A DNA stretch of 64,000 nt from Mobula hypostoma (GCF_963921235.1 NC_086097.1:141734001-141798000); one strand, 5' to 3'; counted from the stretch's first letter, positions 1,111-47,330 are shown. Notes: generated by a model not told the origin, from the letters alone. Made by a program: numbers and translations.

Positions 1111-1959
1111 CAAATAAATCTAATCTTTAAGCATTTTGGACCTAGCAGGAGCACACTTGGAATATTGGGTGTAGTTCTGGTCGCTTTGATGCACAGAATA
1201 GATGCTCAATTTTGTTATTAAAATTAAGAGTTTGCAGGAATGACCAATGAATTTTGTTCCTTTTAAAAAAAAAGAAAGGACAAGGCTTCAAAATTGGGGA
1301 TGGGTCAGAAATTTATTTGAGAGACTAGAGACAGCTGGCTGTAGTGGTGGGCAAGTCTAGACTAATAGGATATAAATATATGTAAGTCATGAATGAGAAC
1401 ATAAGAACAGCAGTATTGAGGAACGTTTTGCATTTTTGGATGCCTAAGAAGGGTATTTGACTAGGAGGAAAAGCAAGAACTGACAATTAGAGTTGAGGTT
1501 CTTGTGCTAGCTTGAGGTTTTTTGTAATTCATAGAATTATTTCAGTAAGATTGGAGGGCAGCAAATATTACCCATTGAATAAAGAGGAAGGAGAGACAAT
1601 GGGTACTGGTGACCTGCTAGTCAATAGTGGAAAATGTGCTAGATTCAGTTGAGAATCATAAGTAATAATAGAACACCTTTAAAAAGGAATAGCGTTGTGT
1701 AGAATCAACATGAACTTGTGAAAGGAAAACATTTGACTAATTTATTGAAATTTTAAGAGCATGTTGCAAGTAAAATGAGGGACAAATGGATCTGGTATAT
1801 TTGGATTTTCAGCCAGGCTGGTTGAAAGAGATTGATTAAAAAGGCAATAATGTACAATAATGAACAGAATCAGGAATAATCCACTGATATAGACTCAAAA
1901 TTAGTTATTGGATAGAAAGGTAATCTTTTTCCTTTTCAAGGTAAGTGGGGTTCTGTCAA

Positions 1960-2705
1960 AGACCCTGATCTAGAGCTACACACACACTGGTTCTTTGCGG
2001 TGATGGGACCTGCTCCTAGGACTCACTGAGTGGCCGTTTTTGAGATATCCCAAGGACATAGCCTAGAAGACAAGTGCGCCTTCAGGTTTCCGAGGCTTTG
2101 CGACCATGGGGAATGAGAGGGTTCTATGGTGGTGCTGCTGATTGAAGCGTAACATGAGAAAACTGAACAACAGATCAGCTGTCGAAGGGCTCTGTACTCA
2201 ACAGACTGTGCGCGCGCGTGCTCTCTCTCGCTCGTTTGTTGCTGGTTCTCAAGTTGGAGAACTTGGGGGGAGGAAGCGATGTAGCAGACTTTAACACCAT
2301 AAATCAGCGAGTGGTTTTTTTTTGTCTTTTTAGTCTCCCTCTTGCTGTATGACACCTCTCTTGTCACTTTCACTTTATTAGGGAAAGTGAGAGCCTGTGA
2401 TATGTCGAATTGTCTGATGAATCATTAGTTTTTGTTGTACTGCAGATCATAGTCTTTCTTGGGGCCTTGTTATCGTTTACCTGGTGAGTGGAGGGTGCTG
2501 ATACTTTTTTTGCTGAAATCAGGGGGAGGAGGGTCATTGTTTTGCTGCTTGTGCACGGAAAGGGGAGTAGGAGCCTTTAGTGTTCTAACATTTTTGCTGT
2601 CACTCATTTTTTTTGGGGCTTATTTCTGTTTTTGTGGATGTCTGTGAAGAACAAGAATTTCAGGTTGTATATTGTATACATTCTCTGATATTAAATGGAA
2701 CTATT
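1960..2705 (+). mobile_element. Non-autonomous GC-rich retroelement with a LINE-like 3' tail
   Basis: CpG-containing non-coding body ending ttcaggttgtatattgtatacattctctgatattaaatggaactatt; interrupts a decayed CR1-like sequence. Confidence 0.5.
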
Positions 2706-3289
2706 AAAATAGATAATCTTAATGTTGGCAGGCCTAAACTATTGGGGAACTGCAAGGATTCTGGGCTGCAGAGGTTCACGTAACTTGTATTTATTTGGCT
2801 TAGAGGTGCAAATACCATATTTCTAAGTTTGCTCATGACATTTAACGAACTGGAGTTATTAGACCTTGTGAATGCAGATGAGCTGAATTACTGAGCAAGA
2901 ATATGGCAGAAGGAATATAATGAGGTAAAAGGGAAGTGACTCACTTCGGTGCTCAAAACAGAAAATTAGTGTTTAAAATGTTGAATGTTTGAGTAGTCTT
3001 GATGTTCTAACATGCCTATGAATCCATGAACACCCATCACTGAAAACCAATTTGCTAGCACAGAAAGTGAATAGGAAGGAAAATGATATGTTGCATTGAA
3101 TGAGAGGATTTGACAGGAGTAAAAATGGCCAACTGCAGTTGTGTAAGGTCTTACTGAGATAGTATCTGGAGAGTTGTTTTGATCTCCTTGCCTCTGGAAA
3201 AGATGCATTTTCTACTTTGGGAACCCAAATGCTTTATGAGATTGGCTTGTTTTCAGTGAAGATCAAGGTTTAGTTGGCAGGGGCTGATT

Positions 3290-6200
3290 TAGAAACATAG
3301 AAAACCTACAGCACAATACAGGCCCTTCGGCCCACAGAGTTGTGCCAAACATGTCCCTACCTTACAAATTACTCGTCTTACCTATAACCCTCTATTTTAC
3401 TAAGCTCCATGTACCTATCTAAAAGTCTCTTAAAAGACCATATCACATCCGCCTCCACCACCGTTGCCAGCAGCTCATTCCACGCACTCGCCATTCTCTG
3501 AGTAAAAAAACTTACCCCTGACAAATCCTCTGTACCCACTCCCCAGCACCTTAAATCTGTGTCCTCTTGCGGCAACCATTTCAGCCCTGGGAAAAAGCCT
3601 CTGACTATCCACATGATCAATGACTCTCATCATCTTATCCACCTCTATCAGGTCACCTGTCATCCTCCATCACTCTGAGGAGAAAAGGCCGAGTTCACTC
3701 AACCTATTCTCATAAGCCATACTCTCCAATCCAGGCAACATCCTTGTAAATCTCCTCTGCGCCCTTTCTATGGCTCCCCCATCCTTGTTGTAGTGAGGTG
3801 ACCAGAACTGAGCACAGTACTCCAAGTGTGGTCTGACCAGGGTCCTATATAGCAGCAACATTACCTCTCAGCTCCTAAATTCAATTCCACGATTGATGAA
3901 GGCCAATACACCATACGCCTTTTTAACCAGAATCAACCTGTGCAGCTGCTTTGAGTGTCCTATGGACTTGGACCCCAAGATCCCTCTGCTCCTCAGCACT
4001 GTTAAGAGTCTTGCCATTAATACTACATTCCGTCGTCATATTTGACCTACCAAAATGAACCACTTCACACTTATCTGGGTTGAACTCCATCTGCCACTTC
4101 TCAGCCCAGTTTTGTATCCTATCAGTGTTCCGCTGTAACTTCTGACAGCCCTCTGCACTATCCACAACACCTCCAACCTTTGTGTCATCAGCAAACTTAC
4201 CGACGCAGCGCGCGCAGCTCTCCTATGAAATGATATCGTATTTGTAAGTAGGATGCCGTGCACAATTCTGATTTGATGGAGACAGACGTGAGAAGCACGG
4301 AGGAACATCTGGAGAAACTTCTGAAATGCCCGGTTTGCTGCTACTGTGCGATTGAGAATCTCCGGAGGGAAGGCCCCAAGATCCTTGGCTTTGTCTGCTG
4401 CTGGCAACCGGGGCTGGGGTCGAAGCACTGGGCAGAGATGGTGCTCGGTGTCGGAGGGCTGGTCGAGGCTCGAAGTTTTTGGACGACTCAGAGTCGGACT
4501 GTGGTCGGGCATAGCAGGGAGAGTTTTCTTCCTTCTGTCTGTGTGAGATGTCGGACTTTCGAGAGACTTTGAAGTTTTTTACCATACCCATGGCCTGTTC
4601 TTCATCAAGTTATGGCATTGCTTGCACTGTTGTAACTATATGTTATAATTGTGTGGTTTTTGTCAGTTTTTCAGTCTTGGTCTGTCCTGTATTTCTGTGA
4701 TATCACACTGGAGGAATATTGTATCATTTCTTAATGCATGCATTACTAAATGACAATAAAAGAGGACTGCGTGTCCTCATAATCTAATCTAATCTAATCC
4801 GTTTCCTCATCCAGGTCATTTATAAAATTCATGAAGAGTAATGGTCCCAGAACAGATCCCTGAGGCACACCACTGGTCACTGTCCTCCATGCAGAATATG
4901 ACCCATCTACAACCACTCTTTGCCTTCTGTGGGCACGCCAGTTCTGGATCCACAAAGCAATGTTCCCTTGAATCCCATGCCTCCTTACTTTCTCAATAAG
5001 CCTTGCATGGGGTACCTTATCAAATGCCTTGCTAAAATCCATATATACTACATCTACTGCTCTTCCTTCATAAATGTGTTTAGTCACATCCTCAAAAAAA
5101 AAAATTCAGTCGGGTTCTTAAGGCATGACCTGCCCTTGACAAAGCCATGCTGACTACTTCTAATCATATTATACCTCTCCAAATGTTCATAAATCCTGCC
5201 TCTCAGAATCTTCTCCAATAACTTACCAACCACTGAGGTAAGACTCCCTAGTCTATAATTTCCTGGGCTATCCCTACTCCCTTTCTTGAATAAAGGAACA
5301 ACATCCGTAACCCTCCAATCCTCCGGAACCTCTCCCGTCCCCATTGATGATGCAAAGATCATCGCCAGAGGCTGAGCAATCTCCTTCCTCGCCTTCCACA
5401 GTAGCCTGGGGTACATCTCATCCGGTCCTGGCGACTGATCCAACTTGATGCTTTCCAAAAGCTCCAGCACATCCTCTTTCTTAATAGCTACATGCTCAAG
5501 CTTTTCAGTCTGCTGCAAGTCATCACTACAATCACTAAGATCCTTTTCCATCGTGAATACTGAAGCGAAGTATTCATTAAGTACCTCTGCTATTTCCTCC
5601 TGTTCCATACGTACTTTCCCACTGTCACACTTGATAGGTCCTATTCTTTCACATCTTATCCTCTTGCTCTTCACATACTTGTAGAATGCCTTGGGGTTTT
5701 CCTTAATCCTGCCCACCAAGGCCTTCTCATGGTTCCTTCTGGCTCTCCTAATTTTCTCCTTAAGCTTCTTCCTGTTAGCCTCATAATCTTCTAGATCTCT
5801 AACATTACCTAGCTCTCTGAACCTTTTTTAAGCTTTTCTTCTTGACTAGATTTATTATAGCCTTTGTACACCACGGTTCCTGTACCCTACCATAACTTCA
5901 CTGTCTCATTGGAACGTACCTATGCGGAACGCCACACAAATATCCCCTGAATATTTGCCACATTTCTTCCGTACTTTTCCCTGAGAACTTCTGTTTCCAA
6001 TTTAAGCCTCCAATTTCCTGCCTGATAGCCTCATAACTCCCCTTACTCCAATTAAACGCTTTTCTAACTTGTCTGTTCCTATCTCTCTCTCCAATGCTAT
6101 TGTAAAGGAGATAGAATTATAATCACTATCTCCAAAATGCTGTCCTACTGAGATATCTGACACCTGATCAGGTTCATTTCCCAAAACCAAATCAAGTACA

Positions 6201-6705
6201 GCCTCTTCTCTTGTAGGCTTATCTACATATTGTGTCAAGAAACCTTCCTGAACACACCTAACTAACTCCACCCCATCTAAACCCCTTGATCTAGGGAGAT
6301 GCCAATTGATATTTGGGAAATTAAAATCTCCCATCACGACAACCCTGTTATTATAACACCTTTCCAGGATCTGTTTCCCTATCTGCTCCTTGATATCCCT
6401 GTTACTATTGGGCGGCCTATAAAAAACACTCAGTAAGGTTATTGACCTCTTCCTGTTCCTAACCTCCACCCATAGAGACTCCGTAGACAATCCCTCCATG
6501 GCGTCCACCTTTTCTGCAGCCGTGACACTGTCTCTGATCAACAGTGCCACACCCCCACCTCTTTTGCCTCCCTCCCTGTCCTTTCTGAAACATCTAAAAC
6601 CCGGCACTTGAAGTAACCATTTCCTGTCCCTGAGCCGTCCAAGTCTCTGTAATGGCCACCACATCATATCTACAAATACTGATCCATGCTCTAAGCTCAT
6701 CTGCA
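3290..6705 (-). mobile_element. CR1 LINE, 5'-truncated in the APE endonuclease domain, frameshifted ORF2
   Basis: [49 protein letters not shown] and HLEYCAQFWSPH motifs; (TTTCTATG)-type tail at ~3290. Confidence 0.95.
4201..4799 (+). mobile_element. Non-autonomous SINE-like element with (AATCT)n tail inserted into the CR1 RT domain
   Basis: Interrupts CR1 between the INDLD and KFADD coding segments. Ends aatgacaataaa...aatctaatctaatctaatc, like the Rex1 tails at 9648 and 41190. Confidence 0.75.
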
Positions 6706-9647
6706 TTTCTGTGGGGTTATAGGTGATCTTATTGAAACATACAGAATAGTATGTAGCTAAGGTAGTTAAACAGGTTGAATAACACACATAAAATGCTGCA
6801 GCATGTCACGCAGCGTGTCACACAGCATCTATAGAAAGGAATATAGTGTTGGTGTTTTGGGCTGGAACCCTACATTAGGACTGAACAGGCTGAATGCTGG
6901 GAGGGTATTTACCTGGGGCAAAAAACTTCAACTAACGGTCTTAAAATAGGCCTTTTTGGACTGAAAGGGGAATAAATTAGTTCATGTAAAGAGTGGTAAA
7001 TATTTGGAATTCCATATCAAAGATGATTATGGAGATTTGCCATTTTTCTTCAAAATGGAGAATGATGGATTTCTGGATACTAAGGAATAATTGCGATGGT
7101 GCTTCAAAACGACACTGAGACAGAAGATCAGTCGTGATCTTGATGAATGGAGGAGCAAGTTTGCAAGCTCAAATGGCTTAATTCTGCAATATCTTCATAT
7201 GGATTCATCCGTCCAGAGTTAGGGTGCGCTTCTTACTTGACAAAGGCAAGAACAATTGTGGGTGAATTGCCAGCCAGTGTATGTGACCACTTTTGATTTT
7301 GCACAAATAACTGACTGGCAGCTGAGAGGGATTGTGGAGATTTTATAAAAATTGGCTGTACTCAGAAATTCATTATCATCCTACTTCTATTGCATTATGA
7401 TATTCGTATTAGGTTTCTAACCAAGGGTCCATTATAGTCCCAGTCCCACTTAGGCTAAGGCTAATTCTAAGGCTCTTTATCATCTCGCTGTATTTAAGAG
7501 TGATTTAATTAAAAAAAAGATTTAAGTGAAATATTTTAAACTATTTGGAAGTTCAATTGATATAAACAGGTTTTTGTTTCTTCAGCATGGATTTCCAGAA
7601 GTGGCTAGATGGAATTTAAGGAGATTCAGCTTAACAATGGGTATTCAGCTTCATGAGCAACTTAATAATTGAACATTTCAAGGTCAGAATCCTGATGACA
7701 GTGTCTCATATTAGATGCAACTATTACCACCTTTGTCTGGTACATCATTTTTTTTCCAAAATGTTTCTTGAGACATCTAATCCATATGATTTTATAATGC
7801 TGTTGCAAAGGGCCTTGCATCATTTTCTTCCTTCAGTCAATCTGACAAGTAGAGGAGTGAAAATAACTCCTAGATTGATTGGCCATTGTGTTCTGTACTG
7901 TTGTCTTAGTTTCTGGATCAACTTATCAGTTGCCTTAGTGGGCTTAGGGAAACTTCAGCAAGGAGAAGTCAAAAATTGTTATGGGGATGAAAAATGGAAT
8001 ACAAAAATATAATTAAATGAACAGAAAAAATCAAATCAGCAAAACTTGTATTTAATAGAAACATTGTCTTTTTAAATGTATTTGTCTTGGATCCTAAGGC
8101 AGAAGATACTTTGTGGATCATGAAAATGGGAGAGAGTTAATGCTTTGTCATAAAGGAAGACGATGTAAAAAATCCTGTAAATGCTGAAGAATTGGTCTAG
8201 AGGGCATGTGGAAAAAATAGGAAATAGCATTGAGAAAATAATTCAAAGTCCTGAGGATTTGAGTATTTGGATCCCATGATTTTTGAGTTGAGTAACTGTT
8301 AAGATAGTGGATACATTAGTTGTCATCTTTGAATACTAATGTAAATTAATAAACATGATGTGGTTCTGAATGGTAACACATGTAATCACAGGATTTAAGA
8401 AAGGAGGGAAGAGAAAACCATGAATGAAAGACAGGTGAATTTGATAGCAGCAGTAGGGAAAATTCTAAAATTTATTAAGGACTTCGAAGTCGTAGTAGAT
8501 CATGTGAAAATAATCATTAAATGGGCAAACAAAATAGATTTATTAAAAATACCAGACGATTTGTTTGGAGGTTATAACTACAATAATTGATCAAGATAAA
8601 CCAGTTGCTCCAGTATCTTTGAACATTGTTGACAGAATGCCACAAGAGATTGTTAAATTGAAGGAAAGCAGATTGGAATGGAGATAAAACACTGGTTTGG
8701 ACTGAAGATTGGTTAGAAAACAGTATGAGCAATTAAATCATTTCTGTGTTATTAGAATGCTTTTACTAGTGGGATGTTCCAGGTATATTCACCATATTTA
8801 TGAAGGACTTGGATGAGGGAGTCAAATACCATAGATCCAAGAACGCAGCTGATACATAGATTGGTACTGTGGGTTGTGAGAAGGATACGGAGAGAAACAA
8901 GTACATTAAATAGGTGAAGATCTGGCACGTATTTCTACTCAATAAGAGAATTCTCCTCCATGATCCTGACCACAGTCTATTTACTACCAAATGCTGAGGT
9001 TAACCAGGCATTCAAGATACTGAATGCTGCCATCACCAAACAAGAAACTGCCCACCCCAATGCATTTCAAATAATAGGGACTTCAATCAGGCTTATTTGA
9101 AGAAATCTCTGCCCAATTATCATCAGCATCTAACCTGTAGTACAAGTGATCCAAACACACTTGGCCACTGCTATACTACGATTAGCAATGCCTACTCTTC
9201 CATGCCTAGACTGCATTCTGGGTCACTTGGCTGACCTCCATCTGCCTGCATGCAGGCAGAGGCTAAAGAGCAAGGCATTAAGATAAGGACAACAAAGAGG
9301 TGGCTGTGGAGGCAACGTTGTAGCTACAGGATTGCTTCGAGTCAGTGGACTACACTGTGTTCAAAGGATTCATCTGAAGGTATATCTGAATGAATACACC
9401 ACGATTGTCACGGCTTTTATTAAAACAGTCGTGGGCGAGTGTGTCCTTGTGTGTTAAGTATTTCAGTAATATTTTATATATACATTGATTAAGCATTCTT
9501 GTTTAAGTAATTCATTATGGGTTATATATACCTATATACACAAATTGTATATGTCATTACGCTACCATGTGATACATGTGCACCTCACTTAAAGTTTTAA
9601 AATAAAGTACTCCATTTTCCTCCTGACTTACTTTCCTTCGAATTACG

Positions 9648-10915
9648 TAGATTAGATTAGATTCAACTTTATTGTCATTGTGCCGAGTACAGATACAAAG
9701 CCAATGAAATGTATTTAACATCTGACTAGAAATGCAAAGAATAGTGTTATTTACAAAATAACTGCGAATAAAAGAAAGTGCTACAGCACCCAAATATAAA
9801 AGTACTGAGACAGTACAATACGTATGCAATACTGCTTAGCGCTGTGATGAGAGGTTCAGCAGTGTCACAGCTTCAGGGAAGAAGCTCTTCCTGTTACTGG
9901 ATAGGAGGAGAGTTTAAAAAGTCTATGGTTAGGGTGAGATGCATCACTGATAATGCTTTTCGCCCTGCTCAGGCAGCGTTTATGGTAGATCTTCTCAATG
10001 GTGGGGAATTGGGTGCCGATAATCCCCTGGGCAGTTTTCACCACACGCTGGAGTGCTTTGCGGCCCGATACGAGACAATTGCCCTGCCACACTGAGATGC
10101 AGTTGGTGAGTATGCTCTTAACGGTACAGCGGTAAAAGTCCGTCGGTATCCTGGGACAGAGGTGAGCTTTCTTCATGCTCTGCAGGAAATAAAGGCGCTG
10201 TTGTGCCTTTTTGATCAGGACGGAGGAGTTCAGGGACCAGGCGAGATCCTTGGAAATGTGGACACCAAGGAATTTGAAGCTTGATACATGCTCCACTACA
10301 GTTCTGTTGATGTAGATGGGAACGTGAGTGTGACTCCTGGCATGCCTGAAGTCCACAATGATCTCCTTGGTCTTCTGGGTGTTAAGGGCCAGGTTGTTAT
10401 CGGCACACCACGCAGCCACGGTGCTGGACCTCGTCCCTGTAGACCGTCTCGTCATCCCCTCTGATCAGACCAACCACCATGGTGTCGTCTGCAAACTTGA
10501 TTATGGAGTTAGAACCATGTACAGGAATGCAGTCATAGGTGAAAAGGGAGTACAGAAGAGGGCTCAGCACACAGCCTCGAGGCATGCTGGTGTTCAGGGT
10601 GAGAGTGGAGGAGGAGAGGTTGTCTAACTTAACAGATTGGGGTCTGTTAGTCAGAAAGTCCAAGGTCCAATTGCAGAGGGATACGCTGATACCAAGCTGG
10701 CGAAGTTTGGCGATCAGCTTGGAGGGGATCATGGTATTGAATGCCGAACTAAAGTCAGTGAACAGCATTCTGACGTAAGAGTTGGGGCTGTCCAGGTGGG
10801 TCAGGGCAGAGTGAAGTGCCGTGGAGATGGTGTCCTCTGTTGACCTGTTGGTGCGATAGGCAAATTGATGGGGGTCCAGGGTAGAGGGCAGACAGGATTT
10901 CAGATGTGATAGAAT
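9648..10915 (-). mobile_element. 5'-truncated Rex1/Babar LINE (RT and 3' end) inserted in the Gypsy LTR
   Basis: [32 protein letters not shown] and KKAQQRLYFL motifs; (AATCT)n tail on the minus strand at 9648-9663. Confidence 0.88.
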
Positions 10916-12392
10916 TAGTTGAATGTTTTGAAGATAGAAAACATAATAGTGGTGATGAAGTATTTTTTAAACCAATCTGATACTGCTACCTACCTGTTGA
11001 AGCGCAACAAGACATTCGAGTAAAAAAAAGCATAGCGAGGAGCAGTTAGTAGAAAAATAGCACAGCATATGCAGAGACAATCAAGTTTTTAAAAAAAAAT
11101 GGCAGAAAACGGAAGAATTCAGGGTTCATAAACAGTAAGTACAAGGTGATAATCGGTGAAATGGCTGGCTGTATTGGAAAAATAGATGCATTCGATTGCT
11201 CAACGGGCAACTGGCTTGTGTACTAAGCTAATTGAACAGTATTTTGAAGCAAATAAAACAGTCAATGAGAAATGAGTACCAATTTTGCACTGGGTTTAAA
11301 GACCATCGGTTTGCTTCGAAGTTTGACTGCTGCAACCAAAGCAGCACAAATTAGTTTTGTTGATGGTGTGCAAGAACATCTAGAAATGAAACCATTGTTG
11401 ATTGCAGAACGCTTTGTTTCACAAGAGGAATCAAAAGGAGGAGTCTGTTTAAGTGTATGTGGTTGAATTGAAGGGATTATCTAAGCATTGTCAGTTCAAT
11501 GATGCACTGAGAGATCATTAGTGTGTGGAATCTTCCAAGAAAAGCATTCAAAAATGGCTTGCAATGGAAGCACAACTAACATTTAAAATACTGTTTGAAA
11601 TTGCTGTATCAATAGAAACAGCAGATAGACACAATTGAGTTGCAGTCAGGATTGAAAGTGAGAATGAACAAAATTGCAACATCTAAACAGAGCCAGCCTG
11701 GTTGAACAAATGGTGTTACTGTTGTGGCAGGGGCTCACATATACCTAACCAATGCTGATTTAAAGGCAAAACTTGCAGAAAATGCAACAAAGTATGATGC
11801 AGAAGAGCATGTTGAGCAGACAAAATAAATGGACTGCACAGTGAAGAGTAAAGGATAAAAAGCCAAGTTGCATTTTCAAATCTACATGCTGTTGATGAAA
11901 AATCTGAGTGTGACACAGGACTGCATAGCTTTGAAATTTACAATGTGAAAATTAGCAATAGGCAAGGCAGAAGGCTTATAGCAGAATTGAGTAGCAAGTT
12001 AATTAAAATGGAATTGGTCTCTGGTTCGGCTGTTTCTGTCATTCCACAAAATGAGTTTGAACGGCATTTCAAAAGTACTGAATTGAAGCCTGTAGATATG
12101 CAACTAAGGACTTGTACTGGAGAAAAGATAATTCTTGTGGGAATGTCATTTGTAAGTGAAATACAACAATCAGCAGGCCACTTTGAGCTGGTATATGGTA
12201 GAAACAGGAGGACCAGCATTGTGAGGTTGTGATTGGCTGAGACAGTTTACAACTTGATTGGAGATTCATCCACCATTTGCATGCCACATCCCCTGCAATT
12301 AACTCAACTGAGAGTGAATTAAGAAAGGTACTGGATGATGCCACAACTCCATGTTGTACACCATGAACCGTTTCCTAATTGTGGACAAATAG

Positions 12393-12719
12393 GTGTTGGT
12401 GCCAATCTCTGTGCCTCTGGTTGGAAAGCATATTGGACCAAGTGAGGACCATGCTGCTCAGAGGAATCATTTAAGTGACAAAAACAGTGGTCCAACTAAA
12501 GTTTTTGTAGGCAACATATCTGAGAAAGCTTCTGATATGTTAATCAGACAAGTTACTTGCAAAATGTGGCTTGGTTTTAGGCTGGAAGAGAGTTCAAGGA
12601 GCTTCAGGAAAGTTCCAAATGAGCATAAAGAATCAGAATCTGTTTTGCATGCATTAAGGTTATTGCATGAACATCAAGTGCGAGACAAAAAGCTACTTAT
12701 AAAAATAGATGGAAAGACT
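12393..12719 (+). pseudogene. RBM25: Processed fragment of RBM25 (pre-RRM and RRM region), frameshifted
   Basis: Translates to VLVPISVPLVGKHIG...GPTKVFVGNISEKASDMLIRQ, then after a frameshift LLAKCGLVLGWKRVQGASGKFQ, then after a deletion EHKESESVLHALRLLHEHQVRDKKLLIKIDGKT. This matches recalled RBM25 (VFVGNISEKASDMLIRQLLAKCGLVLSWKRVQGASGKLQAFGFCEYKEPESTLRALRLLH...KKLLVKVDAKT). No intervening introns are visible. Confidence 0.9.
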
Positions 12720-12802
12720 TCTTGACTCTTGTTTTCCTTTGAATTAGTTTAGTGTTTTGAAGTCTCAAAATCATTTTGTCTTCCCCAACGAGAAGCCTTG
12801 GA

Positions 12803-13000
12803 CAGTGTTCACTCTTTTTTACTGCTGCACACATCAACCATTGCTCTGAGCAGGACATTTTTACACAGCCTGAACGCTATGCGGCATTTTAAATGTTTAA
12901 ACCTTAAGAAAATTTCAACTGCATGGTAACAAAGGCTATGTGCATGGAGCACTTGAGTTGCTGCATGGCCATACACCCACATAGCTTAAAGGGAATAGAG
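12803..13000. mobile_element. hAT-type MITE
   Basis: Degenerate termini cagtgttcactct ... aaagggaatagag; 8-bp TSD-like gccttgga / accctgga (6 of 8 match). Confidence 0.6.
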
Positions 13001-13177
13001 ACCCTGGATGAACCATAAGATCTGTAAGCCAGATCAGTGGCATTCAGGTCTTGCAATCAAGTAAGATACAAAAGGTCCAGATACGATCTCCGGAAGATCA
13101 TACAAATGATCTTACAGGCCTTAACAGAATAGATGGACTGGTATGTTCAGAACTAGGCTGTTTAAACAAGGGTACAC

Positions 13178-13260
13178 CTTGCCACGAAAACTCTATGGAC
13201 GATACACTATCCATAGGGTTGCCATGAGCCGACAACGACTCGATGGCACTCAACAACACC
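13178..13260 (+). mobile_element. 3' end of an RTE/BovB-type SINE or LINE
   Basis: ccttgccacgaaaac...ccatagggttgccatgagccgacaacgactcgatggcact(caa)n resembles the recalled RTE/BovB-related 3' tail. Confidence 0.55.
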
Positions 13261-13443: not shown

Positions 13444-13527
13444 AATTTTTTTGTGGGAGACAATGGCCTGGTGCTCCTTAGTGGGAATTTTTTTGTGGGA
13501 GACAATGGCCTGGTGCTCCTTAGTGGG
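13444..13527 (+). repeat. Perfect 2 x 42 bp tandem duplication inside a small complex insertion
   Basis: aatttttttgtgggagacaatggcctggtgctccttagtggg occurs twice in tandem. Confidence 0.95.
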
Positions 13528-19127: not shown

Positions 19128-22100
19128 AATAGTATTTAGAAATAGTAACATAGCGCAAATCAACACATGGCTGAAGACATGGTGCAGGAGGGAGGGCTTC
19201 AGATTTATAGATAATTGGGCAGTTTTCCAGGGAAGGTGGGACCTGTTCCAGCGGGATGGTTTACATCTGAACTGGAGGGGGACAAATATTCTTGCAGGTA
19301 GGTTTGCTAGAGAGGCTCCGGTGGATTTAAACTAGATACAAGGGAGGAGGGGAACCAGAGTGTAGGAACAGATGTAAGGGAGAAGGAAGAAAAAGAAAAT
19401 AATGAAGTTGTTTGCACTGTTAGTGATAAACAGAGTAAGAGAAAATTTCTTAAATGCATTTATTTTAATGCCAGGAGTATTATAAGAAAAGTGGATGAAC
19501 TTAAAGCATGGCTTGATACCTGGAAGTTGATATGGTAGCTATTAGTTTACAGGAAGGGTGAGATTGGCAACGAAATATTCCTGGATTTAATTGCTTCAGG
19601 TGTGATAGAATCGGAGGGACAAGGGGGGAGGTGTTGCATTGCTTGTCAGAGGAAATATTACCGCGGTGCTCTGGCAGGATAGATTAGAGGGCTTGTCTAG
19701 GGAGGCTATTTGGGTGGAACTGAGGAATGGGAAAGGTGTAGTAACACTTATGGTGGTGTATTATAGACCACCAAATGGGGAGCGAGAATTGGAGGAGCAA
19801 ATTTGTAAGGAGATAGCAGATGTTTGTAATAAGCACAAGGATGTGATTGTAGGAGATTTTAATTTTCCACACATAGACTGGGAAGCCCATACTGTAAAAA
19901 GGCTGGATGGTTTGGAGTTTGTAAAATGTGTGCAGGATAGTTTTTTTGCAGCAATACATAGAGGTACCAACTAGAGGAGGGGCAGTATTGGATCTCCTGT
20001 TGGGGAATGAGATGGGTCAGGTGATGGCGGTTTGTGTTGGAGAGCACTTCGGGTCCAGTGATCACAATGCTATTAGTTTCAATATAATGGAGAAGGATAG
20101 GTCTGAACCCAGGGTTGAGAGTTTTGATTGGAGAAAGGCTAACTTTGAGGAGATGCTTAAGGATTTAGAAGGAGTGGATTGGTACAATTTGTTTTATGGG
20201 AAGAATGTAATAGAGAAATGGAGGTCATTTAAAGGTGAAATTTTGAGGGTACAGAATCTTTATGTTCCTGTTAGGTTGAAAGGAAGGGTTAAAAGTTTGA
20301 CAGAGCCATGGTTTTCAAGGGATATTGGAAACTTGGTTCAGAAAAGGAGAGATATCTACAATAAATATAGGCAGCATGGAGTAAATGAGGTGCTCGAGGA
20401 ATATAAAGAATGTAAAAAGAATCTTAAAGAAATTAGAAAAGCTAAAAGAAGATATGAGGTTGCTTTGGCAAGTAAGGTGAAAATAAATCCAAAGGGTTTC
20501 TACTGTTATATTAATAGCAAAAGGATAGTGAGGGATAAAATTGGTTCCTTAGAGAATCAGAGTGGACAGCTATGTATGGAGCCAAAAGAGATGGGGAGAT
20601 TCTGAACAATTTCTTTTCTTCGGTATTCAATAAAGAGAAGGATATTGAATTGTGTAAGGTAAGGGAAACAGGTAGGGAAGTTAGGGAAACTATGATGATT
20701 AAAGAAGAGGAAGTACTGGCGCTTTTAAGGAATATAAAAGTGGATAAGTCTCCAGGTCCTGACAGGATATTCCCAAGGACCTTGAGGGAAGTTAGTGTAG
20801 AAATAGCAGGGGCTCTGACAGAAATATTTCAAATGTCATTAGAAACGGGAATGGTGCCGGAAGATTGGTGTATTGCTCATGTTGTTCCATTGTTTAAAAA
20901 GGGTTCTAAGAGTAAACCTAGCAATTATCGGCCTGTGAGTTTGACGTCAGTGGTGGGTAAATTGATGGAAAGTATTCTTAAAGATGGTTATACAATTATC
21001 TGGATAGACAGGGTCTAATTAGGAACAGTCAACATGGATTTGTGCATGGAAGGTCATGTTTGACAAATCTTATTGAATTTTTTTTGAAGAGGTTACTAGG
21101 AAAGTTGACTGGGGTAAAGCGGTGGATGTTGTCTGTATGGACTTCAGAAAGGCCTTTGACAAGGTTCCACACAGAAGGTCAGTTGGGGAGGTTCAATCGT
21201 TAGGTATTAATATTGAAGTAGTAAAATGGATTCAGCAGTGGCTGGATGGGAGATGCCAGAGAGTAGTGGTGGATAACTGTTCGTCAGATTGGAGGCCGGT
21301 GACTAGTGGTGTGCCTCAGGGATCTGTACTGGGTCAAATGTTGTTTGTCATATACATTAATGATCTGGATGATGGGGTGTTAAATTAGATGAGTAAGTAT
21401 GCAGATGCTACTAAGATAGATGGAGTTATGGATAATGAAGTAGGTTTTCAAAGCTTGCAGAGAGATTTAGGCCAGTTAGAAGAGTGGGCTGAAAAATGGC
21501 AGATGGAGTTTAATGCTGATAAATGTGAGGTGCTACAATTTGGTAGGACTAATCAAAATAGGACAGACATGGTAAGTGGAAGGGCATTGAAGAATGCAGT
21601 AGAACAAAGGGATCTAGGAATAATGGTGCATAGTTCCCTGAAGGTGGAATCTCATGTGGATAGGGTGGTGAAGAAAGCTTTTGGTATGCTGGCCTTTATA
21701 AATCAGAGCATTGAGTATAGGAGTTGTGATGTAATGTTGAAATTGTACAAGGCATTGGTGAGGCCAAATTTGGAGTATTGTGTACAATTTTGATCACCGA
21801 ATCATAGGAAAGATGTCAACAAAATAGAGAGAGTACAGAGAAGATTTACTAGAATGTTACCTGGGTTTCATCACCTAAGTTACAGAGAAAGGTTGAACAA
21901 GTTGGGTCTTTATTCTTAGGAGCGTAGAAGGTTGAGGGGGGACTTGATAGAGGTATTTAAAATTATGAGGGGGATTGATAGAGTTGACTTGGATAAGCTT
22001 TTCCCATTGAGAGTGGGGTAGATTCAAACAAGAAGACATGAGTTGAGAGTTAAAGGGCGGAAGTTTCGGGGTAACATGAGGGGGAACTTCTTTACTCAGA

Positions 22101-32649: not shown

Positions 32650-34010
32650 GTAAAAAGGGACCCAAGAGTCCAAGTGTAGAGTTCACTTAAAGCAGCATCA
32701 CAGGTAGATAGGGTATTGAAGGTGTTTGACACAGTTGCCTTTAGTCAGGACATTTGAGTATAGGAGTTCGGAAGTGTAACGCTCAGCTATATTGGCTCGT
32801 ATATATCTAGGGGAAATCCCGCCTGGCGCCCGCCTGGACACCTCCAGTTAGATTGGTTGCTGCACCATTGCCACCCAAATCAATCCCAAACAGCAATCAT
32901 CAGCCAGCACATACAGTACGTTTTACCAAGTACACTTTATAGATATTACTAAGTCTATGAAATTAATATAAGTTCGATACAGAAAAAGAAGGAATATAAA
33001 AAGGCGCCAGACTTATCAAAGTTCAAGTTCTTCGTGCACAAGTTGGAGCTCAGGAAGTTCTTCAGGACCACCCGGACCCCGTCGACTCGCGGCTCGGGGC
33101 CACCCGGACCCCGTCGGCGCGCGGCTCGGGGCCACCTGGACCCCGTCGACTCGCTGCTCGGGACCACCCAGAGTGATCAACCGGAGCCTTCCCACGTGTC
33201 CGTCGTCCTCCCCGTCTCTCGTCCGACTCCCTGCCAAAAACCCCCGTTCCCAGTCATATGAGACAGCATTATCACCCCAAGAGATAATAACATGGACACC
33301 CATTGGCTAATAGCACCCTGCTGTCTGTATTAACCCAAGTAAATGTCTAGCTAGAGACTTTCTCAGCATTTAACATAACATAGAAGCCATTTTAATCCAC
33401 ATACGCAGCAGTTTAAAAAATTAACATAACAAAGAAGCCATTTTAAATTTAACATATAAAGAAGAAACCCCGTACAGAAGTTATGCTGCAGTTACACAAG
33501 ATGTTGATAAGGCCACTTTTGGAGTATAGTGTGCCATTTTGCTCACCCTTTTTTATATAAAAGGTGTTATTAAACTAGAAAGTATACGGGAAAGATTTAC
33601 TAGGATGTTTCCCTGACTTGTGGGGTGCTGAGTTACAAGGAGAGGCTGCATAGACTAGGACTGTATTCCCTGGAATGTAGGAAAATGAGGAGTGATCTCA
33701 TAGAGTTATAGATGAAGTGGAAGTATATTGTCTTTTTCCCAGGGAGGGGTTCCTAGAAACAAAAAGTCACCGAAGGCGAGAGACTTAAGAACCATTAGAG
33801 CAGCTTTGTTACACAAAGGGTGATGTGGATTTGGAATGATCCACCAGAAATAGTGGTTAAGGTGGACACATTAGCAACAATAAAAAGCCATCTAAAAAAC
33901 TGCAGAGATCTGAAAGGGGTAGATGGCTCTGGGCCAAATGTGGGCATTTGGGCAACAGTCAGCCTAAAGGAATTGGGCTGAAGGGCCTGGTTTGTTCTTT
34001 TTCTTTGCTG
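32650..34010 (+). mobile_element. Decayed CR1 3' fragment hosting the solo LTR
   Basis: gagtataggagttcggaag|ttatgctgcag continuity; LEYSVPF and RFTRMFP-like segments. Confidence 0.7.
32775..33476. mobile_element. 702-bp solo LTR
   Basis: Starts TGTA and ends TACA; perfect 4-bp TSD GAAG at 32771-32774 and 33477-33480; interrupts a CR1 fragment; contains internal tandem repeats. Confidence 0.85.
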
Positions 34011-40322: not shown

Positions 40323-40851
40323 ATTTAGCCTATGTGTTTTTATCAAGTGTTATTTTCAAAAGAGATGCTGGAGTTTTTTGTTATTTATATTTTAAATATT
40401 TTATATTTAAGCCAGGAGCAACTGCCTTGCTGGTAGGATTAAACAAGGTGATTTAACTTCAAAAATGGAGGGAGGCAGGATATGGATGAGGCTGGAGTGT
40501 TTCTTTGAGCATTGTATAGTGAGAATTTATTTTCCAATTTTTTTTCTGGTGATATTGATCGTTTTAAAATTAGCAGTTTTGGAGTTTATACAATAGTTCT
40601 ATCACAGTTGAGTTTTCATCCTTTACTGATCGTATGAAATGGCGGTTGAGTTTTGATCGCAACTCTTTACTGTCTATTTGCCATACACTTTGATTTCCTT
40701 GTGGTTCAGCAATTTCTTTCATTTACTACAATATGACTAAGCATCCCTTGCTCAGGTTTGAGAATTCCCAAGAGCCTACTCCTAATATGGTTAAAACTGG
40801 CAGTATTACTTTGTTCTGTAACTTGTAATTCCTATATTTGTGTTATTACTG

Positions 40852-41199
40852 CCCAGCGGATTATCGGCACCCAATTGCCCACCATTGAGAACATCTACAA
40901 TAAATGCTGCCTGGGCAGGGCGAAAAGCATTATCAAGGATGCATCTCACCCTAACCATGGACTTTTTACTCTCCTCCCATCCGGTAGGCGCACCAGCAGG
41001 CACAGGAGGAGTTTCTTCCCTGAGGCTGTGACCCTGCTGAACCTCTCATCACAGCACTAAGCAGTGCTGTGGCACTTTTTTTATTCACAGTTATTTTGTA
41101 AATAACACTATTCTTTGCATTTCTGGTCAGATGCTAAATGCATTTCATTGGCTTTGTATCTGTACTCGGCACAATGACAATACAGTTGAATCTAATCTA
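40852..41199 (+). mobile_element. Rex1 3' fragment, same family as 9648-10915
   Basis: Closely matches the reverse complement of ~9650-10035; (AATCT)n tail; attactg flanks both sides (40845 and 41200). Confidence 0.88.
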
Positions 41200-41369
41200 A
41201 TTACTGAACTTGGTTACGTTGTATTCAGCCCCACCAAGCAGGCCAAACTAACTCAAATTGTGAGTGTTTGAACATGATTTCAATTACTTTTATTGAAATA
41301 ATTTAGTATGCTGACAAATACTATTTTTATTTAATTCCACGACTTTCAATTTCATCAATTTCATTAATT

Positions 41370-41569: not shown

Positions 41570-44500
41570 TTGAGAGGGAGAAGATTAAGTCAGATGTATC
41601 AGTATTTGAGTGAAGTAAAGGGAATTGGAGGCAAAAGAGTGGAGCTGGCCAGAGTTGAACACTAACAGGAATAATGGCAGAACAGCTATGGCTGGAGTTT
41701 TTGGGGGCAATTCAGAAGGGGCAGGATAGATACATGCCAAAGATGAAGTATTTTAAAGGGAGCATGAAGCAACTGTGGCTGTCAAGGGAAGTCAAAGACA
41801 GCACAAAAGGTAAAGAGAGAGCACCTAATAATAGTTAAAATTTAGTGGGAAGTTTAGAAGATTGGTAAGCTTTTTAAAAAAAACTAACAGAAGGTGACTT
41901 AAAAAAAATGAGAGAAAAATTGAAATATGAAGGTAAGCGGGCCAATTATACCAAAGAGAATTTCAAGAGTTTTTTCAACTATAATAAAAAGCAGAACAGG
42001 CAAGAGTGGGTATTGGACCGCAGGAAAATGACGCTGAAGGAGTAGTAATGGCGGATGAACTTGCTAAATATTTTGTGCCAGTCTTCACTGGAAGACACGA
42101 GGAGTATGCCAGAAATTAGGGGCAAGAATAGTTGCTATTACTAAGGAGAAAGTGCTTGGGAAGCTGAAAGGTCTGAAGATAGATGAATCACCTGGACCAG
42201 ATTGACAACACCCAGGGTTCTGAAAGGGGTAGCAAAAGAGATTGTGAAGGCAATAGTATTGATCTTTCAAGAATCACTAAATTCTGGAATGGTTCTGGAG
42301 GACTGGAAAATTGCAAATGTCAATCCATTCTTTAAGAAGGGAGGGAGGCAAAAGAAAGGAAATTTAGGCCAGTTAGCCTGACTTTGATAGTTAGGAAGAT
42401 GTTGGAGTCCATTATTAAGGATGAGATTTTGGGGTACTTGGAGGTACATGATAAAGTAGGCCAAATTCAGCATGATTTACTTAAGGGGAATCTTGCCTGA
42501 CAAATTTGTTGGAATTATTTGAGGAAGTAACAGGCAGGAGAGTCAGTGGATGTTGTTTACTCGGATTTTCAGAAGGCCTTTAACAAGGTGTCACATGTGA
42601 GGCTTCTTAACAAGATCCCATGGTATTATAGGAAAGACAGAACCTTGGATAGAAGATCGGCAGGAGGCAAAGAGTCAGAATAAAGGAGCCTATTCTAGTG
42701 GCTGCTGGTGTCTCATAGTGTTCCTCAAAGGTTGGTTTTGGGATTGCTTTTTTTCAAGTTGTATGTCAATGATTTGGATGATGGAATTGATGGATTTGTG
42801 GTCAGGTTTTCGGACAATACAAAGATAGGTGGAGGGGCAGGTAGCGTTGAGGAAGCAGTGAATCTGCAGGAGGACTTAGGCCAGATTGAGAGAATGGGCA
42901 AAGAAGTTGCTGATGGAATATAGTGTAGGGAAGTGTATGGTCATGCACTTTGGTAGAAGGAATAAAGGTCAAAACTCTTTTCTAAACAAGGTGAAAATTC
43001 AGAAATCAGAGGTGCAAAGGGTCTTGGGAGTTGTCATGCAGCATTCCACAAAGGTGTAAGTTGAGTCAGTGGTAAGGAAGGCAAATGCAATGTTAGCATT
43101 AATTTCGAGAGGACTAGAATATAAAAGCAAGGATGTAATTCTGAGGCTTTATAAGGCATTGGTCAAACCACACGAAGTAGTGTGAGCAGTTTTGGGTCCC
43201 TGATTTGTGAAGAGATGTGCTGGTATTGGAGAGAAATTACAACCATATAACCATATAATAATTACAGCACGGAAACAGGCCATCTCGGCCCTTCTAGTCC
43301 GTGCTGAGTGCTTACTCTCACCTAGTCCCACCGAACTGCATTCAGCCTGTAATCCTCCATTCCTTTCCTGTCCATATACCTATCCAATTTTTCTTTAAAT
43401 GACAATATCGACGTCAAACTTACAGGCCGATAATTGCTAGGTTTACTCTTAGAACCCTTTTAAAACAATGGAACCACATGAGCAAAATGCCAATCCTCCG
43501 GCACCATCCCCGTTTCTAATGACATTTGAAATGTAGAGCACCTGCTATTTCCACACTAATTTCCCTCAAGGTCCTAGGGATTATCCTGTCAGGACCTGGA
43601 GACTTATTCACTTTTATATTCCTTAAAAGCGCCAGTACTTTCTCTTCTTTAATCATCATAGTCTCCATAACTTCCCTACTTGTTTCCCTTGCCTTACACA
43701 ATTTAATATCCTTCTCCTTAGTGAATACCGAAGAAAAGAAATTGTTCAAAATCTCCCCCACCTCTTTTTGGCTCCACACATAGCTGTCCACTCTGATCCT
43801 CTAAGGGACCAATTTTATCTCTCACTATCCTTTTGCTATTAATATAACAGTAGAAACCCTTTGGATTTATTTTCACCTTACTTGCCAAAGCAGCCTCGTA
43901 TCTTCTTTCAGCTTTTCTAATTTCTTTCTTAAGATTCTTCTTACATTCTTTATATTCCTTGCACCTCACTTACTCCATGCTGCCTATATTTATTGTAGAT
44001 ATCTCTCTTTTTCCGAATCAAGTTTCCAATATCCCTTGAAAACCATGAAAACTTTTAACCTTTCCTTTCAACCTAACAGGAACATAAAGATTCTGTACCC
44101 TCAAAATTTCACCTTTAAATTACCTCCATTTCCCTATTACATTCTTCCCATAAAACAAATTGTCCCAATCCATTCCTTCTAAATCCTTTCGCATCTCCTC
44201 AAAGTTAGCCTTTCTCCAATCAAAAATCTCAACCCTGGGTCCAGACCTATCCTTCTCCATTATATTAAAACTAATAGCATTGTGATCACTGGACCCGAAG
44301 TGCTCCCCAACACAAACCTCCGTCACCTGACCTATCTCATTCCCGAACAGGAGATCCAACACTGCCCCTTTTAGTTGGTACCTCTATGTATTGCTGCAAA
44401 AAACTGTCCTGCACACATTTTACAAACTCCAAACCATCCAGCCTTTTTACACTATGGGCTTCCCAGTCTATGTGTGGAAAATTAATATCTCCTACAATCA

Positions 44501-45665
44501 CAACCTTGTGCTTACTACCAACATCTGCTATCTCCTTACAAATTTGCTCCTCCAATTCTCGCTCCCCATTAGATGGTCTATAATATACCCCTATTAGTGT
44601 TACTACACCTTTCCCATTCCTCAATTCCACCCAAATAGCCTCCCTAGACAAGCCCTCTAATCTATCCTGCCAGAGCACCGCTAAAATATTTTCTCTGACA
44701 AGCAATGCAACACCTCCCCCCTTGTCCCTCTGATTCTATCACAACTGAAGCAATTAAATCCAGGAATATTTCGTTGCCAATCTCATCCCTCCTGTAACCA
44801 TGTTTCACTAATAGCTACAACATCATATTTCCAGGTATCAATCCATGCTCTAAGCTCATCCACCTTTCTTACAAAGCTCCGAGGATTAAAATAAATGCAT
44901 TTACGAAATTCTTCACCTCTTACTCTCTGTTTATCACTAACGGTGCAAACAACTTTACTATCTTCTTTTTCTTCCTTCTCCCCTACATCTGTTCCTACAC
45001 TCTTGTTCCCCTCCCTCCTTGTATCTAGTTTAAATTCACTGGAGCCTCTCTAGCAAACCTACCTGCAAGAATATTTGTCCCCCTCCAGTTCAGATGTAAA
45101 CCGTCCTGTCGGAACAGGTCCCACCTTTCTTGGTAAACTGCCCAATTATCTATAAATCTGAAGCCCTCCCTCGCAAAATTCACAAGAATGATTCCAGGAA
45201 TGAAAGCATTAACATATGATGACTATATGATGGCTTTACTTGCTGGAGTTTAGAATAGTGAGGGGGAATTTCATTGAAATCTATCTAATATTGAAAGGCC
45301 GAGTTAAAGTGGATGTGGAGAGGATGTTTCCTTTTGTGGGTGAGTCTAGGATTAGGGGGTACAGCCTTAGAATAGAGGGGTGTCCATGTCGAACAGAGAT
45401 GAGAAGAAATTTCTTTAGCCAGTGGGTTGTGAATCTGAGGAATTCATTGACATGGATGGCTGTGGAGGCTAAGTCATCGAGTATATAGAAAGCTGAGAGT
45501 GATAGGTTTTTGGTTAGGGCGTCAAAGGTTATGGGGAGAAGGCAGGAGAATGCGGCTGTGAAGGATAATTAATCAACCGTGAAGGATAATTAATCAACCA
45601 TGATGGAATTGCTGGAATGGACTTGATGGGCTGAGTGGCCTAATTGTGCTCCTGTGTCTTGTGGT
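41570..45665 (+). mobile_element. Older CR1 (41570-43237 and 45173-45665), same family as 18640-24050
   Basis: Shared sequence such as ggagctggcca..gttg and ggatagataca..ccaaa; VPQRLVLGLL, NDLDD and FSDNTK motifs. Confidence 0.85.
43238..45172 (-). mobile_element. Younger CR1, inverted near-copy of 19128-22319 with a ~1.2 kb RT deletion
   Basis: Near-identical translations to the + copy; (CCATATAA)n tail at ~43241; the junction at ~43410 joins equivalents of ~20948 and ~22153. Confidence 0.93.
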
Positions 45666-46649: not shown

Positions 46650-47330
46650 GCAGTTAAAATGATCGTGGTTCAGGAATGTTGGTTGTTGTGGTTAAATGTC
46701 CGTCCTTTGCACTGACGTATACCTTGGTGTACCTTTGATAATCCTGAGCACATTGATGTGGCGGGGGGGGGGGAGATTTTATATATTGTTTAAAACATTT
46801 CGTAGTGACGTGATCCAGAAGCTTGAGAATCACCACAGCTGTGCTCATTTTGTGAACGAGGACGGAAGCAATATCGAGAAAACCCGCATTACACGGCAGT
46901 TATAACTTTTGGGGCAAGCCCGTACTATATATAGCTTAGCTATAGTTGAAGTGTTTTTATTAATTCGTACACGTGAAAATTTGAACGTGATTACTATTTG
47001 AATACGAAGTATTTTAAATTAAATTCCACTCTTTTTAGTAATAGCGCAAGCGGGTTAAACAACCCACCTTTAGAATAATTTTACATTGGAGTTTTGAGTA
47101 TTACGTTAAGGGGATAGAATAATAAACGACTAAACGAATGAAGAAGACCTGGCATAAAAGCCTTTTACACAGTATTTTCCTTAATTTCACTACGATCATC
47201 CGTTGGTGTTGTGGGCGCGCGCGCTTTTTCCCCGTGACCCAACAAGTCCGCCATTTTGTGGTGGGGGAGGGGAGCAGGGGAGGGTGGGGGAAGGGAGAGC
47301 TAGGAAACAAGATGGCCGCCGGTCGCTTGA
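46650..47330 (+). promoter_or_regulatory. CpG-rich putative promoter / 5' region of the KANSL1-family exon
   Basis: CpG density rises sharply from ~46650 to ~48300. Motifs: YY1-like CCGCCATTTTG (47248-47258) and CAAGATGGCCGCC (47308-47320); CRE-like TGACGT (~46713, ~46806); ETS-like CGGAAG (~46863); E-box CACGTG (~46969). Confidence 0.65.

Follow-up and report, generated by a model that had tools for sequence, protein, structure and literature searches.

How did part of the messenger RNA of a host gene come to lie inside a long terminal repeat (LTR) retrotransposon, and is the result an isolated accident or one copy of many? The question is raised by a stretch of 64,000 nucleotides from Mobula hypostoma (GCF_963921235.1 NC_086097.1:141734001-141798000), the whole of which we call the window, where a decayed Gypsy-type element (9452-12770) holds a fragment of RBM25 behind its gag and protease. 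An earlier, sequence-only reading had offered two explanations: capture by template switching of the reverse transcriptase (RT), possibly amplified as a chimeric family, or the patching with cDNA of a break that had deleted RT, integrase and most of the 3' LTR. We conclude that the window element, itself a dead fragment, is likely a member of an amplified, non-autonomous chimeric family whose copies share an internal junction and which is present in three organisms, A, B and D. As to origin, we give a probability of roughly two in three to the reading that this decayed Gypsy copy descends from one template switch onto a co-packaged RBM25 mRNA, was amplified in trans and later suffered a 3' deletion.

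The evidence for a family comes from contigs of four runs, X2 and X21 (organism A), X5 (B) and X10 (D), aligned to positions 12150-13050 at 80% likeness; counts of pieces refer to the 32 listed, 8 per run, out of about 26,000. The remaining runs among X9-X20 contributed small shares and were set aside. The junction between Gypsy and RBM25 sequence (12345) is bridged by 11 of the 32 (5 of 8 in X2, 4 of 8 in X5, and 1 of 8 in each of X10 and X21), with at least 31 letters on each side, and dozens more contigs cross it with small insertions. All 11 bridging pieces differ from the window by 14.6-17.5%. The orthologues of the window locus show 1 difference in 214 letters in X5 (12651-12864), and 8 letters and 2 gaps in 202 in X10 (12734-12935). 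Since the orthologues are only 0.5-5% divergent, the pieces that bridge the junction cannot represent the window locus; more generally, other copies lie 10-17.5% from the window, the upper figure being a ceiling set by the 80% cut-off. The contigs thus support amplification as a chimeric family in these three organisms, a possibility that the sequence-only reading had raised. That X21 represents RNA is a guess; it may contain DNA, and we draw no evidence of expression from its junction contigs.

Depth and contig counts indicate how large the family may be. Relative to 12717, summed depth is raised 33- to 3133-fold at ten places within 12354-12699; it peaks there at 1700-3100 and reaches 2200-8000 in the Gypsy part. 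When the contigs of X10 were classed by eye at the junction, 72 continued past 12348 as RBM25-type and 107 past 12345 as non-RBM25, Gypsy-type, so that chimeras and copies of the parent type are comparable in number. The chimeric copies appear to number hundreds or more.

Two of the aligned pieces, record 13 of X2 and record 26 of X5, are both 294 letters long and both cover 12281-12533 with 10 gaps. They may be orthologues of another chimeric insertion common to A and B.

The 3' junction behaves quite differently from the 5' one. Depth at 12717 is 6.9 (X2), 7.9 (X5) and 10 (X10), like that of the right flank at 12996 (6.6-15.5), and it stands at 1433-2369 at 12765. As the right flank at 12996 is single-copy, the repeated unit excludes it. 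Position 12718 is bridged by 1 of the 32 listed pieces, the X5 orthologue; in X10 a single contig spans 12717 (51 letters from its end) and 12722 (42 letters from its end). RBM25 meets the distal LTR only at the window locus and in its orthologues, and this arrangement predates the separation of A, B and D. The sequence-only reading had proposed, as a sign of a mobilised chimera, that several loci share the junctions; this holds for the 5' junction, found in many diverged copies, and fails for the 3' junction, which is single-copy and found in orthologues only. The same pattern refutes the patching of a break with cDNA at this locus. The largely missing 3' LTR, singled out there as needing an explanation, most likely reflects a later deletion confined to the locus and its orthologues. 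An mRNA replaces the internal open reading frame (ORF) in the window copy, though the 3' junction that we see there is this private deletion. That deletion took away the 3' end with which the piece was captured, and the missing poly(A) carries no argument; to take a piece from the 5' part of the coding sequence, lacking poly(A), as a case against a retrocopy made by a long interspersed element (LINE) is weak, because the private deletion took the very part that would bear such marks.

The identity of the captured piece is clear from protein comparisons. With 12393-12722 as the query, 35 of 117 candidates passed E<=0.001, all gene-named hits were RBM25, and the best was a shark RBM25-like protein (E 7.7e-29). 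The sequence-only reading had placed the piece at 12393-12719; its end (about 12716-12719) stands, and its start lies some 45 bases earlier, at about 12346-12348, since by tblastn the similarity to RBM25 reaches as far back as 12348-12351 and takes in an N-terminal segment. This upstream segment (12346-12392, plus strand) matches P0001, P0036 and P0037 by tblastn and appears to be part of an alternative exon of shark isoforms. Of the 40 RBM25 proteins compared, 3 have the MLYTMN start, all of them in one 90% shark cluster, and the form closest to the captured piece is from shark. The possibility that 12347-12392 is retained intron with a terminal AG was given up because the shark isoforms match the segment as coding sequence. 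The shark proteins P0001, P0036 and P0037 have an alternative 16-residue segment and a 4-residue extension before the linker, both absent from the other 37 compared, and our literature search turned up no paper on this segment.

The linker and RNA recognition motif (RRM) follow at 12393-12716 on the plus strand, identified by protein matches and high in summed depth in all four runs. Compared with P0036 in three frames separately, the piece is identical at 49 of 66, 20 of 22 and 23 of 32 residues, or 92 of 120 in total (77%). As had been noted before, it is sense-oriented and without poly(A) in the window copy. It is interrupted by one stop, changes frame near 12550 and has lost a few bases near 12619; the RRM is near-invariant among the vertebrate RBM25 proteins compared, and lesions of this kind in such a domain fit neutral decay. 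Searches with P0036 of viral and prokaryote contigs returned nothing, and matches in the ESM Atlas were confined to generic RRM clusters.

Protein isoforms also suggest that the piece was spliced. Shark RBM25 isoforms X1 and X2, on contigs of equal length (27,581), are alike except for four residues that X1 has in addition between KQ and VLV; the window agrees with the shorter form, X2. Because these are isoforms of one gene, an intron lies at this point. Two further boundaries are marked by variants from fish and other species, with a break behind LLA in P0023 and one behind GKLQ or GKQ in P0007, P0021 and P0026. At the first of these the window sequence continues uninterrupted; at the second it shows a short deletion and no intron. 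Judged by these isoforms, the captured piece is evidently spliced and would thus come from an mRNA. Comparison of P0001 with metagenome contigs found one locus, whose RBM25 exon has splice signals and corresponds to sequence immediately 3' of what was captured; RBM25 does have introns, though those of this locus lie outside the captured stretch. Of the listed pieces, 16 bridge KQ/VLV and 13 bridge LLA/KCG, and the other copies are accordingly intron-free too.

The carrier is, by its gag and aspartic protease sequences, a Ty3/Gypsy-type LTR element. Residues 1-413 of a teleost Gypsy-type protein (P0041) cover 11161-12342 in four colinear tblastn pieces (E 8e-63), and the gag-protease frame, with stops written as X, retrieved 1923 proteins by phmmer at E<=0.001 (best 8.1e-51). 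We assign 11161-12345 (plus strand) to a decayed gag with a zinc knuckle and to the protease. In the full-length relatives of P0041 that were scanned (three of three) a single ORF has the order Gag-PR-RT-RNaseH-IN, with a zinc knuckle or protease preceding the RT. The RT of these relatives begins at about residue 466-500, which places the end of the Gypsy part in the window copy between protease and RT. No RT or integrase of the same clade was found in the 64-kb window at E<1e-4 with hits longer than 900 amino acids as queries. The clade may be Mag-like. Pfam recognised none of the RRM, gag, protease and target pieces, whether plain or with X at stops; a PDB sequence search gave nothing useful, and word-index searches returned no homologue of either the protease piece or the target ORF.

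The LTRs are broken at both ends of the element. The first part of the 5' LTR (9452-9645, plus strand) starts with TGTTA and the last part lies at 10918-10948; without the LINE that separates them the LTR measures about 225 bases, and its end is an inverted copy of its first five bases with one mismatch. A putative primer-binding-site-like motif starting with TGG follows at 10950-10960 (plus strand), judged by position and sequence. A remnant of the 3' LTR lies at 12717-12770 (plus strand), its left edge being the private deletion junction. Within it, 12720-12746 aligns with 9621-9645 (21 of 27 columns, a score reached by 9 of 2000 random windows) and 12741-12774 with 10912-10944 (27 of 34 columns, reached by 0 of 2000); both scores together were reached by none of the 2000. 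We thus read 12717-12770 as the distal part of the 3' LTR, about 21% divergent from the 5' LTR, and the match of 12721-12770 to the LTR claimed earlier is upheld by these alignments. Direct LTRs with inverted ends and the TGG motif after the 5' LTR agree with a Ty3/Gypsy element, the 5' LTR being present in two parts and the 3' LTR as a remnant only. The sequence-only reading had the order of parts right as to gag, protease, RBM25 piece and a 3' LTR remnant of about 50 bases; its continuous 5' LTR gives way to one that is split by a LINE.

LTR copies elsewhere extend beyond 12770, with loose ends in 108 contigs of X2 and 141 of X5, so the last few bases of the LTR and any target-site duplication have been lost at the window locus. 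No target-site duplication was seen at the right end of the Gypsy element, and the region of the polypurine tract is deleted. We would read these absences as decay, which lowers the certainty about the ends of the element and not that about its origin.

The LINE within the 5' LTR (9646-10911, minus strand) is about 1.27 kb long, 5'-truncated and bears an RT (Pfam PF00078, E 2.8e-16; PF09004, E 1.8e-13). It is bordered by a 6-base duplication, GAATTA, at 9640-9645 and 10912-10917. The 3' LTR remnant has GAATTA once, which suggests that the LINE arrived after integration of the Gypsy element. A second copy of the 3' end of this LINE lies at 40848-41201, and its RT has no match in viral contigs. 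The Gypsy element in its turn appears to have landed in an older LINE fragment (8950-9451, plus strand, read from a translation by eye, with an approximate start), which seems to resume for about 35 bases at 12767-12802 (plus strand), where an F-P-N-x-K-P-W motif occurs at 12781, once in the window. Judged by motifs that seem to run in register across 9451/12767, this target may be Rex1-like. Searches did not confirm that identity for 8950-9451 and 12767-12802: there were no Pfam hits, the homologue search returned none, and tblastx against the window gave nothing notable.

If an RT did switch templates, the most plausible point is the pair of Ala-Thr codons of the Gypsy frame at 12340-12345 (plus strand). 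P0037, of the shark cluster, reads APATTVSMLY, with nine bases (three residues) between its Ala-Thr and the Met. The window has five bases before the Met at 12351, and four extra letters are present at the junction in some other copies (14, 8, 15 and 3 contigs). We predict that the Ala-Thr codons of Gypsy coincide with the Ala-Thr of RBM25; at least 4 of the 6 bases would then be common to both, and Gag, protease and RBM25 would be joined in frame. A search with a 15-base pattern of the junction matched 99 viral stretches, 0 of which had a blastn or tblastn match at E<1e-3, and these were set aside as chance.

We propose that the RT, once past the protease, came off the Gypsy RNA at this short shared Ala-Thr stretch and went on to copy an alternatively spliced RBM25 mRNA, which would have put RBM25 in frame with gag and protease. 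It would then have switched back to the Gypsy RNA near its 3' end. The resulting chimeras, having neither RT nor integrase, would have moved by means of the enzymes of helper relatives. The copy in the window gained a LINE in its 5' LTR, presumably after integration, and, before the lineages of A, B and D parted, would have lost everything from RBM25 codon 127 (P0036 numbering) to the distal part of the 3' LTR; it would now be a neutrally decaying pseudogene fragment. We regard template switching as the likely first event.

Several observations weigh against this account. Summed contig depth is not copy number, and with the 80% cut-off it varies about 70-fold along the RBM25 piece; some of that depth could come from RBM25 copies not joined to Gypsy. 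The two LTRs and separate target-site duplications that we ascribe to other copies are an assumption. Junction alignments are not uniform, for other contigs have one extra letter instead of four, which also keeps the frame. The microhomology is drawn from protein P0037, not from parental RBM25 DNA, and LINE 5' truncations also show short microhomologies. The switch back to Gypsy RNA is a supposition. Finally, among 150 Gypsy protein hits none matched RBM25, and no chimeric protein was found.

A bolder proposal, which we consider doubtful, is that the capture did the element some good: an in-frame fusion of Gag, protease and RRM would have been made, and the RRM protein, or the host-like RNA, would have aided packaging, processing or escape from small-RNA silencing, the chimera growing to a large share of the Gypsy lineage with about a thousand copies. 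Were this true, an essential splicing regulator would be represented in a vertebrate genome by something like a thousand partial copies.

The alternative that survives best, though we think it unlikely, is that a LINE made an RBM25 retrocopy, truncated near its 5' end, which landed in the pol of one Gypsy copy; this was then amplified non-autonomously, and the window locus was later stripped of its poly(A) and pol and of the greater part of its 3' LTR. Such a history accounts equally well for the 5' junction common to many copies, the spliced state of the piece and the deletion private to this locus; RT-bearing LINEs are abundant in the window, and the part of a retrocopy preprint available to us gives cartilaginous fishes many retrocopies, 14,081 (10.64898/2026.06.26.734816). 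The difficulty is that a near-full-length retrocopy must land in sense, apparently in frame, and at two shared codons, and that a much longer element must then be amplified. Moreover, all 15 fly cases described in the consulted part of Tan et al. 2016 (PMC5131818) are replacements, not insertions.

It is less probable still that the chimera was made at the level of DNA in one master copy, by repair of a break with a patch of RBM25 cDNA or RNA or by recombination with an existing RBM25 retrocopy, and was amplified afterwards. Such an origin yields the same replacement structure with short homology at the join, and the locus does have other short deletions; however, no older free RBM25 retrocopy was seen, and no positive sign distinguishes this route from template switching, which is the documented one.

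A one-off event at the window locus (a cDNA patch, or a retrocopy with a deletion), with the multi-copy signal supplied by unrelated RBM25 pseudogenes or segmental duplications, would accord with the single copy in the 64-kb window and with the capacity of depth sums to mislead, yet it is very improbable, because five overlapping X2 pieces, 15-17% diverged, bridge the same junction (more than two alleles allow), dozens more contigs cross that junction when orthologues differ by only 0.5% (X5) and about 4-5% (X10), and the 3' junction and right flank are single-copy. An ordinary single-locus RBM25 retrocopy, the rival from which we started, was dropped once many diverged copies proved to share the 5' junction.

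The surroundings of the element hold other repeats. Immediately to its right, 12815-12874 is a separate short high-copy repeat, with loose ends at both edges in more than 100 contigs (X2, X5) and the top bin of X21 depth. A repeated fragment follows at 12900-13260, with raised depth at 12894-12955; it may be the 3' end of an RTE-type LINE. An exact 42-base tandem duplication occupies 13444-13527, and a G+C-rich tandem repeat of period 32 (3.2 copies) lies at 33068-33169. Two LINE copies at 19188-20948 and 43410-45172 form an inverted pair, about 87-96% complementary over about 1.7 kb and some 23-25 kb apart. A 615-codon open frame at 47126-48973 (plus strand) is probably a large host coding exon, for which Pfam and PDB searches gave 0 hits; its C-terminal part may be related to KANSL1-family proteins. 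An Rfam scan of the 64-kb window returned 0 matches.

A family that spread so widely and persisted across species has several uses. There are enough copies to test whether captured genes help an element, through selection on the RRM along the internal branches of a copy tree, and whether chimeras give rise to small RNAs that act back on the parent gene. Where such genomes are annotated, RBM25-like entries and counts of retrocopies may reflect one capture rather than many retropositions. The element also preserves an old, alternatively spliced isoform of RBM25.

A literature search on RBM25, retrotransposon and shark found no paper, and wider searches of titles and the beginnings of abstracts found no description of the family, which repeat libraries or supplements may list. 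A survey of host fragments in transposon consensus sequences (PMC3597677) does not name RBM25 in its main text. In the main text of the 244-genome retrocopy preprint (10.64898/2026.06.26.734816) other genes are dominant in cartilaginous fishes and RBM25 is absent; the main text of a manta genome preprint, likewise without RBM25, gives repeat totals only.

The closest parallels are the cases of LTR-mediated retroposition in metazoans collected by Tan et al. 2016 (PMC5131818). There, so far as the consulted portions go, partial mRNAs replace internal ORFs with a median microsimilarity of 6 bp, a sense bias and secondary retroposition. Like the window element, they involve a partial, intron-free mRNA, mostly in sense, in place of ORF sequence; they show short homology at the switch, as is predicted for the 5' join here, some chimeras were re-mobilised, and some old copies miss LTR sequence on one side. 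The text consulted and the supplements searched contain no cartilaginous fish case and no RBM25. Those cases are recent and not numerous (nine fly retrocopies with 18 insertion sites; 5 in zebrafish, 4 in chicken and 8 in mouse), whereas the RBM25-Gypsy family is old, common to three organisms and apparently present in hundreds of copies or more.

Other known captures differ in the carrier and in the state of the captured gene. In the crocodilian elements CrocERV29 (KIT-ligand) and CrocERV31 (nectin3), according to the part of the paper available to us (PMC4299795), a host mRNA also sits in a vertebrate LTR element with several copies across species, and in CrocERV31 nectin3 replaces a viral domain. 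These are endogenous retroviruses, with nine intact ORF copies of KIT-ligand and six insertions of nectin3, and their captured ORFs are intact and under purifying selection; the RBM25 carrier, by contrast, is of Gypsy type, its pol is replaced and its window copy is decayed (77% residue identity, a stop and a frameshift). As summarised in the consulted part of PMC5131818, maize Bs1 is a non-autonomous LTR element in which all copies have the same switch points with captured host exons, as in the present family, though it is a plant element of one to five copies with three donor genes. The same source describes HERV-K/FAM8A1, like the window copy a captured and now inactive processed pseudogene. 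Its joins show microsimilarity; it is a single case on a retroviral carrier, with no large amplification stated in that portion of the text. Set beside the cases compared, which run to 1-9 copies, the RBM25-Gypsy family looks like the work of a known mechanism on an apparently much larger scale.

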